Assembly: GCA_001821935.1 (NCBI GenBank)
Contig: MHOU01000010.1
Span: 45,157-93,778 of the forward strand
Length of the DNA: 48,622 nucleotides
Source of the DNA: Candidatus Staskawiczbacteria bacterium RIFCSPHIGHO2_02_FULL_43_16
GTDB lineage: Bacteria; Patescibacteriota; Minisyncoccia; Minisyncoccales; Staskawiczbacteraceae
Direction: 5' to 3'
Shown here: positions 22,659 through 23,152 of the stretch, in pieces
Numbering within the stretch: position 1 is the first letter of the stretch
Layout of the letters: each line of letters opens with the position of its first letter
Translations under genes and position numbers: made by a program
The notes under the pieces: generated by a model
The model's database searches: none
What the model saw: only the letters and a program-made list of their open reading frames with translations
Told to the model about the DNA's origin: nothing

Positions 22659-22692
22659 GGGTCCATAGTTCAGTGGTAGAATGTCCCGATAA
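22659..22692 (+). pseudogene. Orphan 5' fragment of a tRNA-Ile paralogue (acceptor and D arms)
   Basis: GGGTCCATAGTTCAGTGGTAGAAT differs at two positions from the intact gene 5' end at 22741. Confidence 0.5.
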
Positions 22693-22831
22693 ATTTAGCT
22701 TTTGCTAAATTGATACGGGATCCCGTATCAAAATTTTGGTGGGTCCATAGTTCAGTGGCAGAACGCTGTCCTGATAAGACAGAGGTCGAAGGTCCGATTC
22801 CTTCTGGACCCACCAAAATTTTTATCGGGAC
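22684..22831. repeat. Palindromic mini-element (TIR GTCCCGAT...ATCGGGAC) with the intact tRNA-Ile nested at its centre
   Basis: The same element without a tRNA is at 35691..35763. Internal palindromes AATTTAGC-tttt-GCTAAATT and GATACGGGATCCCGTATC. Confidence 0.55.
22741..22815 (+). tRNA. tRNA-Ile (anticodon GAU), 3' CCA encoded
   Basis: Acceptor stem GGGTCCA/TGGACCC, anticodon stem-loop CTGTC-CTGATAA-GACAG, T-arm GAAGG-TCCGATT-CCTTC. Confidence 0.85.
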
Positions 22832-22853
22832 CGTCCTGATAATGTGGAGGTAA

Positions 22854-23125
22854 GGAGTGTAAGAAAGAATTAAAAACATTTTAGCGGTAGCGGATTCAGG
22901 CAAGATTCAAGGCGCGAGGAACAAATTGAATGCCGGAGGTATTGTTTGTTCCGAAGCAACGATGAAGCTTGCCTGAATCCGCCCGCCCGGAGGGAAGCCA
23001 AAAAATAAATAATTTCTGCGTTATACCTCCTCGGTGTAGCGCATGGGCTATGCCTCGTCGGCAAGCCTTGAAATTATTTCATTTTTTGAGCTTCTAAAAG
23101 TGCTTTTAATTCTTTCTTACACTCC
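22854..23125. mobile_element. MITE-like structured element, copy 1 (~272 bp; 29-bp terminal inverted repeats GGAGTGTAAGAAAGAATTAAAAACATTTT)
   Basis: Near-perfect TIRs. The core is homologous to copy 2 at 23560..23834. Internal 15-bp long-range stem GCGGATTCAGGCAAG/CTTGCCTGAATCCGC. Confidence 0.55.
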
Positions 23126-23127
23126 CA

Positions 23128-23152
23128 GGTCCGATTCCTTCTGGACCCACCA
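23128..23152 (+). repeat. Direct repeat of the tRNA-Ile 3' end (T-arm, acceptor 3' strand and CCA)
   Basis: GGTCCGATTCCTTCTGGACCCACCA is 25/25 identical to 22791..22815. att-like duplication. Confidence 0.6.

Follow-up and report, generated by a model that had tools for sequence, protein, structure and literature searches.

We describe a tRNA-Ile(GAU) gene nested inside the interrupted remains of another tRNA-Ile gene in a 48,622-nt stretch of DNA from Candidatus Staskawiczbacteria bacterium RIFCSPHIGHO2_02_FULL_43_16 (contig MHOU01000010.1), referred to here as the window. The organism is an ultrasmall bacterium of the candidate phyla radiation that lives in groundwater. Coordinates of elements and tRNAs are window positions on the plus strand unless stated otherwise. 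The locus is the resident, promoter-proximal tRNA-Ile(GAU) gene, which was split twice by unrelated palindromic insertions, a small element and a 272-bp element, and the small element holds an intact tRNA-Ile in the loop of its third arm. The whole account, in which two elements broke the resident gene, the inner copy is the working one and this copy was recopied locally by microhomology, is in our estimate correct with a probability of about 0.6. The features of the locus are as follows.

22557..22589, plus strand: terminator-like hairpin ending the upstream unit, a 15-pair stem followed by a T run
22619..22647, plus strand: promoter-like site of the outer tRNA gene, putative in function (TTGACT-17-TAAAAT with TG upstream; 10/12 matches)
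22659..22683, plus strand: outer tRNA-Ile nt 1-25, GGGTCCATAGTTCAGTGGTAGAATG, with 2 mismatches to the intact gene
22684-22830, plus strand: small palindromic element copy 1, whole, 147 nt, with TCCCGAT/ATCGGGA at its ends
22684..22736, plus strand: left part of copy 1 (58.5 bits with covariance model R1), made up of the terminus TCCCGAT (22684-22690), hairpin 1 AAATTTAGC-TTTT-GCTAAATT (22691-22711), the invariant hairpin 2 GATACGGGATCCCGTATC (22712-22729) and the arm-3 5' strand AAAATTT (22730-22736)
22737..22740, plus strand: leader TGGT of the inner tRNA, pairing with ACCA at the tRNA 3' end
22741..22815, plus strand: inner tRNA-Ile(GAU), intact and with its CCA encoded; presumably the functional gene
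22816..22830, plus strand: right part of copy 1, the arm-3 3' strand AAATTTTT and then the terminus ATCGGGA
22831..22851, plus strand: outer tRNA-Ile nt 26-46, CCGTCCTGATAATGTGGAGGT, a degenerate anticodon arm (CCGTC CTGATAA TGTGG) plus AGGT
22854..23125, plus strand: 272-bp element copy c1, a 29-bp copy-specific closing stem around a core of ~205 nt with two long hairpins
23127..23152, plus strand: outer tRNA-Ile nt 50-75 (T arm, acceptor 3' strand and CCA), an exact copy

Every part of this list that had been named in a first-pass annotation, made from the letters alone, is present in the sequence (5' fragment, element arms, intact tRNA, anticodon-arm piece, 272-bp element and 3' copy). The 3' copy is exact, as that annotation had it, but measures 26 nt and not 25; with the subsequent AAAA included, the identity extends to 30 nt. 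The three orphan pieces tile tRNA-Ile in order and without overlap (nt 1-25, 26-46 and 50-75). The first break falls exactly at the termini of the small element, which sits cleanly between G25 and C26 of the tRNA with no base duplicated or lost. The second break lies near the variable-loop/T-stem junction and is not clean, since AA...C stands around copy c1 in place of the ancestral CGA; the inverted arms of c1 are 29 nt each and 93% complementary. The 5' orphan starts 11 nt past the promoter-like site, and the 3' orphan ends 8 nt before the ATG of a gene for a 111-amino-acid (aa) protein. The middle piece is 79% identical to the intact tRNA over 19 nt, with seven of seven anticodon-loop bases the same and the 3' stem strand altered. 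Each long tRNA fragment occurs exactly twice in the window, with 0.00 copies expected from 100 shuffles, which rules out a chance low-complexity match.

Integrative elements that target tRNA genes are usually recognized by partial tRNA copies adjoining an intact one. The duplicated tRNA ends had been described as att-like, and the orphans could be attL/attR-type duplications left by decayed, integrase-inserted islands, which would also account for the 30-nt exact 3' repeat beside an intact gene. This explanation is very improbable and the description was not upheld. Duplication of att sites does not produce a nonoverlapping tiling that includes 5' and middle pieces of a split gene, the first break coincides with the terminal inverted repeats (TIRs) of the 147-bp element, and only 82-337 bp of palindromic repeats lie between the repeated tRNA segments, with no integrase or remnant of one nearby. 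The locus does share with tRNA-targeting integrative elements an insertion that destroys a tRNA gene and restores its function with brought or copied sequence, leaving orphan pieces behind. It differs in that a complete tRNA, not a 3' part, is supplied within a 147-bp palindrome, in that there is neither an integrase nor large cargo, and in that orphans lie on both sides.

The same arrangement is found at 99.8-100% identity in independent assemblies (NCBI, ENA and JGI; several Rifle aquifer samples); the organism was matched to Candidatus Staskawiczbacteria assembly GCA_001820305.1. An assembly artefact that joined repeated tRNA and palindromic sequences is the least credible of the explanations considered and is excluded by these assemblies. 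Several population contigs do end within the region, and contig L003 joins the 272-bp core to another locus. However, the full arrangement is identical in L001, L002 and L013, which come from different samples and assemblers, and no repeat is longer than 36 nt, which is less than the final k-mer that the ENA contig ids give (k141). A relative, L051, also has a comparable structure. One assembly (L008:2012) has A for C at window 22753, position 13 of the inner tRNA in the D stem, which is a sequencing error or a polymorphism.

Comparison with related genomes provides the ancestral state. Relatives were reached via the downstream gene for a metallo-beta-lactamase (MBL)-fold protein, with MBL identities of 85% (L049), 76% (L050) and 67% (L051). 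The upstream S11 peptidase gave homologs of at most 67% identity (L034-L040) that were not syntenic and had no tRNA-Ile. L050 has, in order, a promoter (TTGACG-17-TAAAAT), a short leader, one uninterrupted tRNA-Ile(GAU), a small Cys-rich gene, MBL, PF1765 and FtsZ; the Cys-rich gene is the homolog of the 111-aa Cys-rich membrane protein of the window, and the gene order is that of the window. The L049 contig begins inside the tRNA, its anticodon-stem/variable-loop/T-arm junction is uninterrupted, and the same small gene follows 5 nt on. The outer fragments of the window thus occupy the native tRNA-Ile position seen in L050 and L049. Because the uninterrupted gene of these relatives stands at the same native position, the outer pieces are the old resident gene and the insertions are derived, and the ancestral state is one uninterrupted tRNA-Ile between the promoter and the Cys-rich gene. 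This bears out the earlier proposal that an older tRNA-Ile copy was broken by successive small insertions.

The acceptor stem and the base-by-base differences relate the inner copy to the outer one. Both copies have the acceptor stem GGGTCCA/TGGACCC, which is absent from L050 (GGGCCCG), L049 (...CGCGCCC) and L051. Since this lineage-specific stem is shared, the inner copy in this lineage duplicates the resident gene, or an allele very close to it, and was not imported from afar. Polarized against the relatives, the outer copy is derived at nt 24 (C24 to T), 27 and 38-41, and its T19 is ancestral and retained. It has five derived changes in the anticodon arm, one in the D stem and a damaged 5' T-stem strand. 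The inner copy retains the ancestral anticodon arm CTGTC/GACAG, and C19 is its single derived base. The outer tRNA-Ile is now a pseudogene, with a C-U mismatch at pair 31-39, the loss of the 5' T-stem strand and the five derived anticodon-arm changes. The idea that the outer gene had evolved under constraint within a different lineage, raised by one compensatory pair and two wobble pairs, was dropped once the relatives showed these changes to be derived in the outer copy.

Alternatively, the outer tRNA might be functional, with the insertions excised from the RNA as intervening sequences, the three exons joined and the inner tRNA carried as a passenger. ARAGORN at default settings still recognizes a tRNA-Ile(GAT) when the three pieces are joined in silico with some junction choices; since it passes many such junctions, the call does not discriminate. 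Patescibacteria are unusually rich in tRNA and rRNA introns (PMC13011429, PMC11270868). Their tRNA group I introns sit in the anticodon loop (35/36 and other positions), match the group I model and are self-splicing (PMC13011429). The present case concerns the same bacterial group and likewise tRNA genes interrupted by structured noncoding insertions, but these insertions match no group I or II intron model and sit at 25|26 and at the variable-loop/T-stem junction, not at the anticodon-loop sites of bacterial tRNA introns (PMC13011429). The Rfam intron scan works here, as a group I intron elsewhere in the 16S gene of the same organism was detected by it. RNA splicing also fits poorly with the derived damage of the outer copy, with its C-U pair at 31-39 and a T stem of only 3-4 bp. 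Copies of the small element in coding sequences are multiples of 3 and open in frame, and the 272-bp family lies antisense in the 16S gene. To our knowledge, no protein-based tRNA splicing pathway exists in bacteria. We judge excision at the RNA level to be highly unlikely.

In contrast to this alternative, our preferred reading assigns the tRNA function to the inner copy. The inner tRNA is called tRNA-Ile(GAT) by ARAGORN and scores 70.4 bits with the Rfam tRNA model. It has the canonical cloverleaf, a GAU anticodon and conservation among orthologs expected of a functional tRNA, and its anticodon arm is identical in L049, L050 and L051. As had been proposed from the letters, then, one insertion does appear to hold a functional tRNA-Ile: the copy with the ancestral anticodon arm is the one in the loop of arm 3 of small element copy 1. 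Its acceptor stem extends into an 18-bp perfect helix made up of the acceptor, TGGT/ACCA and AAAATTT/AAATTTT. tRNA-Ile(GAU) is probably essential and single-copy, and the inner copy probably now does the work, read from the old promoter. Transcription would start from the promoter-like site at 22619-22647 and cross first the 5' orphan and then the element's left half before reaching the inner tRNA, which RNase P and 3' processing would then release.

The T loop of this tRNA-Ile, TCCGATT, has C at position 55 in both window copies (22794-22800 and 23131-23137) and in L049, L050 and L051. Position 55 is near-universally U (pseudouridine). Among the other three window tRNAs, the usual TTCGA is seen in the two whose T loop was resolved, Thr-CGU and Gln-CUG; the third is Thr-UGU.

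The flanks of the inner tRNA suggest how it came to lie in the element. Its leader AAAATTTTGGT matches the native AAAATTTTAGGTAATT, and its trailer ACCAAAATTTTTAT matches the native ACCAAAAAAATTAT. The TGGT of the leader is homologous to a native motif, which is AGGT before the outer gene and TGGT in the L050 and L051 leaders. A retro-origin of TGGT, by fill-in of a folded-back cDNA of a CCA-ended tRNA, was considered and dropped because TGGT is native in those two leaders. The tRNA segment is bounded by microhomologies between the element arm and the native flanks, AAAATTT (7 nt) on the left and AAA (3-4 nt) on the right, and copy 2 of the element, which lacks a tRNA, shares its arm-3 stem with the tRNA-bearing copy 1. 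Native leader sequence in the inner copy and microhomology at both junctions are the reasons why we favor templated recopying. The palindrome would first have inserted into the essential tRNA-Ile gene; a break at the hairpin tip would then have been repaired, via microhomology, with a new copy of the intact allele and of part of its leader. An insertion allele that carries its own replacement would be viable in an essential gene, and the arrangement would persist. This capture step is the least certain part of the account.

A second nested case was found in L051. At L051:1767-2045, a terminator and a promoter are followed by an orphan of tRNA-Ile nt 1-28 (1847-1874), a hairpin with a tRNA-Ile and an orphan of nt 32-53 (2018-2040). 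The intact tRNA-Ile(GAU), at 1897-1971, is enclosed by the perfect 21-nt inverted repeat CACGTTACTTTGGTGGGCGAT/ATCGCCCACCAAAGTAACGTG. The break points differ (25|26 in the window versus 28|32 in L051), as do the hairpin arms, and the L051 hairpin has no similarity to the small element, which is absent there. The nesting in L051 arose independently of that in the window. The acceptor stem is extended by a perfect leader-trailer helix of 11 nt in the window and 14 nt in L051, against 0-1 nt in ten other tRNAs examined. The inner 5' flank of L051, TTACTT, resembles the native leader of the orphan, TTTACTT. Recurrence argues for a process specific to the tRNA-Ile gene and keeps alive an explanation in which the tRNA itself moves.

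According to that explanation, the hairpin-embedded tRNA-Ile (TGGT-tRNA-ACCA) is a mobile cassette that replaces the function of the resident gene and may have come from another strain. Two independent nestings with different break points and hairpin arms are consistent with such a cassette, and only the two nested genes have long leader-trailer helices. The window unit is bounded exactly by the terminal repeats of the element, which is near-identical across distant candidate phyla radiation (CPR) lineages and so appears to spread horizontally. The differences between the inner and orphan acceptor stems of L051 are clustered where functional tRNAs of different lineages differ. However, all six other members of the small-element family (five found with an 18-mer and one with a covariance model) have a short third arm and no tRNA, and the window inner copy has the lineage-specific acceptor stem of the outer gene. 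Its 5' flank also matches the native leader, although the AAAATTT part of this match is the arm-3 stem of the element itself. The L051 hairpin is dissimilar to the small element, and the window contains no transposase or integrase. We consider the mobile cassette unlikely, if the most serious competitor. A more far-reaching form of it is somewhat less probable again: CPR hairpin-embedded tRNA-Ile cassettes would invade the resident gene and complement themselves, the third arm would be a cargo site, and the two nestings, with perhaps a TGGTGGG remnant in the L050 leader, would represent successive replacements.

Several observations weigh against local recopying of a resident gene. The derived changes of the outer copy are uneven, with 5/21 in the middle piece versus 1/51 in the end pieces (Fisher p = 0.007), a distribution that simple neutral decay does not explain; it could reflect a single clustered mutation, or gene conversion in which the inner copy overwrote the outer ends. 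Four of the five middle-piece changes form one run (GACA to TGTG). The acceptor stems of the inner tRNA (GGGCGAT) and the orphan (GGGCTCA) of L051 differ at three neighboring positions, which would suit a copy from another lineage better than one made locally. The AAAATTT microhomology, being AT-rich, may be coincidental. Capture needs either the transient coexistence of disrupted and intact alleles or a single event with multiple template switches, and its independent occurrence in the window and in L051 strains a model of pure accident. Expression of the inner rather than the outer copy is itself a prediction. No other tRNA-Ile was found near the 16S gene, but there may be a second tRNA-Ile(GAU) elsewhere in the genome.

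The small palindromic element of the preferred account belongs to a family. The second copy within the window is as follows.

35691..35764, plus strand: small element copy 2, tRNA-free, with arm 3 AAAATTT-ATACT-AAATTTT (78.3 bits with R1)

This copy lies between the gene gap and the terminator of a minus-strand gene. The first-pass annotation had already noticed it, with ATACT at the position that the tRNA occupies in copy 1; both hold, and only its end shifts, from 35763 to 35764. The invariant sequence ATACGGGATCCCGTAT occurs exactly twice in the window, with 0.10 occurrences expected. Scans of 596 Gb of genomes and of JGI metagenomes with the invariant 18-mer of the element gave five further genuine copies, one in a Saccharibacteria metagenome-assembled genome, one in another Staskawiczbacteria genome and three in metagenome contigs; 12 of 17 metagenome matches were chance hits in high-GC DNA. 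Scans of viral contigs with the 18-mer, a core motif of the 272-bp family and the outer middle fragment gave only chance high-GC phage matches or nothing. A third copy from the organism of the window, diverged and found with the covariance model, lies at L048:4838-4909, ~1.9 kb past the window end, in an interrupted 16S rRNA region between two LAGLIDADG open reading frames (ORFs), where the rRNA alignment is unreliable. The search for further copies thus added six, each with a short third arm and no tRNA at its center. Three copies were seen in this genome, two of them within the window.

Alignment of the copies shows which parts of the element are conserved. The termini (G)TCCCGAT/ATCGGGA(C) are common to all eight copies, so the sharing of termini assumed at the outset stands. 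Seven of them have an identical central GATACGGGATCCCGTATC, which has diverged to ATACGAGGATCCCGTAT in the L048 copy. The stem of hairpin 1 varies only by Watson-Crick compensation (AGC/GCT, AAT/ATT, GAT/ATC, AAC/GTT and AC/GT). The third arm is hypervariable: GC-TTT-GC, GCC-loop-GGC, AAAATTAC-TCTC-GTAATTTT, GTCCGCC-GTAA-GGCGGGC in L048, AAAATTT-ATACT-AAATTTT in copy 2 and AAAATTT-[tRNA]-AAATTTT in the window unit at 22684-22830. Copies without a tRNA are 60-75 bp long and noncoding. Two folds are open to the sequence, a perfect four-way cloverleaf and a pair of long imperfect hairpins.

Copies of the element occupy diverse sites. At L022:4663-4727, a copy of 63 nt lies in frame within the gene for the DNA glycosylase Tag, adding 21 codons between residues that correspond to E. 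coli 107 and 110. At L016:5019-5080, another of 60 nt lies in frame within the gene for cyclopropane-fatty-acid synthase (Cfa), adding 20 codons at E. coli residue 334. The two copies share orientation and frame, and their predicted translation is SR..DTGSRINL..NLSG (n = 2). The Cfa site is empty in the window ortholog, and the Tag and Cfa sites are empty in PDB homologs. A 43-aa tandem query of the element-encoded peptide found nothing in a set of 5.8 billion proteins. Syntenic copies at L017:300-425 and L031:1500-1650 occupy the 5' untranslated region (UTR) of a ylqC-like gene with a KH domain. A promoter of the TTGACA...TACAAT type stands ~25 nt upstream of them, and they may have been recruited as leader structures. 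The L031 copy has an rve-type transposase gene 167 bp away, which is absent at the syntenic L017 copy. Apart from the Tag, Cfa, 5' UTR, tRNA and 16S copies, the copies are intergenic. No target-site duplication was seen at any of the seven copies with readable flanks, no transposase or integrase was found among the Pfam-scanned ORFs of the window, and the element gave no Rfam match at threshold. The small element is a sparse, selfish DNA of the type described below, and the near-identical copies in Saccharibacteria and Staskawiczbacteria imply horizontal spread.

The window Cfa gene has an insertion of its own relative to L016, of ~15 aa (window 10605-10665, STDSTGSLQASSGQAE). It is not palindromic, as no inverted repeat was found in 10500-10800.

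We compared the elements with known classes of repeats. Rickettsia palindromic elements (RPEs) are short, noncoding palindromes that lie in frame within unrelated housekeeping genes or in intergenic DNA, keep a constant open orientation and frame and have no transposase (PMC10969869). The small element resembles them in adding 21 and 20 codons to Tag and Cfa in one shared frame. It differs in being half their size or less (60-75 bp versus ~100-150 bp), in its very low copy number spread across distant CPR phyla, where RPEs are confined to one genus, and in having a hypervariable third arm, occupied here by an entire tRNA gene. Sequence similarity is lacking too, and the only Rfam match is a subthreshold one to the Rickettsia rpsL leader (32 bits; gathering score, 60).

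MITEs (transposable elements of the miniature inverted-repeat type), repetitive extragenic palindromic (REP) sequences and bacterial interspersed mosaic elements (BIMEs), among them Correia, enterobacterial repetitive intergenic consensus (ERIC) and REP doublet (REPIN) elements, offer a second comparison. Like these, the elements are small, AT-rich and nonautonomous, have inverted-repeat termini, form hairpins, lie in UTRs or intergenic DNA and have empty sites in relatives. The small element is short and noncoding and its copies share TIRs; the termini of the 272-bp element are inverted but differ between copies. Presence/absence polymorphism is evident at the L050 tRNA-Ile, which is intact, at the Cfa gene, empty in the window and filled in L016, at the Tag and Cfa sites and at the sites of copies c1 and c2. 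The small element differs from MITEs in the lack of a target-site duplication, and a search of the window turned up no related autonomous insertion sequence. It differs from REP, BIME and REPIN elements in that no GTAG flanks its copies and no REP-associated tyrosine transposase (RAYT) gene is present among the Pfam-scanned ORFs of the window. The 272-bp family, with a conserved core and copy-specific terminal stems, is the reverse of a normal MITE family. Overall, the elements are CPR members of the known palindromic, MITE- or RPE-like selfish DNA, and the nested working tRNA is an unusual variant. The small element behaves as RPEs and other intragenic MITEs have been found to do (PMC10969869). 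Our literature searches turned up no account of a tRNA that lies within a palindromic element in the pseudogene of that same tRNA.

The element that made the second break, c1, also belongs to a dispersed family, with two further copies in the window.

23560..23834, plus strand: copy c2, with its own ~34-bp closing stem, between the 111-aa gene and MBL
48232..48498, minus strand: copy c3, a 258-nt insertion in 16S rRNA helix 6 (~model position 80), antisense to the rRNA

The core of ~205 nt forms two long hairpins and has paralogs in c2 and c3 at ~73% identity to c1; 22 base pairs are kept by double substitutions among the three copies. The closing stems (17-34 bp) have no shared sequence between copies, whereas the core is conserved. 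The closing stem of c3 is perfect, its own and 17 bp or longer, and there is no ORF, so that c3 has the helix-tip position and long duplex of an rRNA intervening sequence of the kind cleaved by RNase III. No Rfam model matched the family, either in 22500-23900 up to E = 10 or in the whole window at gathering scores. When folding energies were used to compare a function as RNA with one as DNA, they showed no consistent strand preference. The sites of c1 and c2 are both empty in L049 and L050, with no copy of the family between the small Cys-rich gene and MBL in L049, and the spacing from S11 peptidase to MBL in the P0130 genome is only 121 bp. At L003:7780-8020, the right part of the core is joined to the other locus mentioned above, upstream of an L33-like ribosomal protein gene, which implies that the genome has at least one more copy of the family or that copies have recombined. 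In L013, the sequence departs from that of the window past the 111-aa gene, at a half copy.

Because the family sits in a tRNA pseudogene, an intergenic site and a 16S gene, and in both orientations, it acts at the DNA level; it is a dispersed DNA repeat and not an rRNA-specific processing element. A class of short CPR rRNA insertions has been left uncharacterized (PMC11270868). Copy c3 resembles these in having no ORF or intron model and a long closing helix, but the same core also recurs in a tRNA pseudogene and between genes, and c3 is antisense to those copies.

The 16S gene that contains c3 is itself unusual. In L048:2463-8308 it spans almost 5 kb and includes the two LAGLIDADG ORFs and the group I intron, which Rfam scores at 55.6 bits. 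Next come greA and tRNA-Ala(UGC) instead of tRNA-Ile and 23S, so the usual spacer tRNAs are dispersed in this genome.

If the preferred reading is right, a seemingly lethal insertion in an essential, probably single-copy tRNA gene persists by containing its own replacement, and has done so independently in at least two related lineages. The small element extends the RPE phenomenon of in-frame palindromic DNA in housekeeping proteins to the CPR. Part of the unexplained short CPR rRNA insertions is identified, since one family at least turns out to be a DNA repeat dispersed to tRNA genes and intergenic sites as well. Annotation of tRNAs and rRNAs and 16S-based surveys of CPR genomes will mishandle such loci. 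Should the cassette explanation be true instead, tRNA genes behave as selfish, replaceable units.

Two other genes of the window deserve mention. Window positions 15590-18097 encode an 835-aa protein with a major-vault-protein shoulder domain (PF11978), a domain that is unusual in bacteria. After it, positions 18320-18583 encode a stand-alone GIY-YIG nuclease-domain protein of 87 aa.

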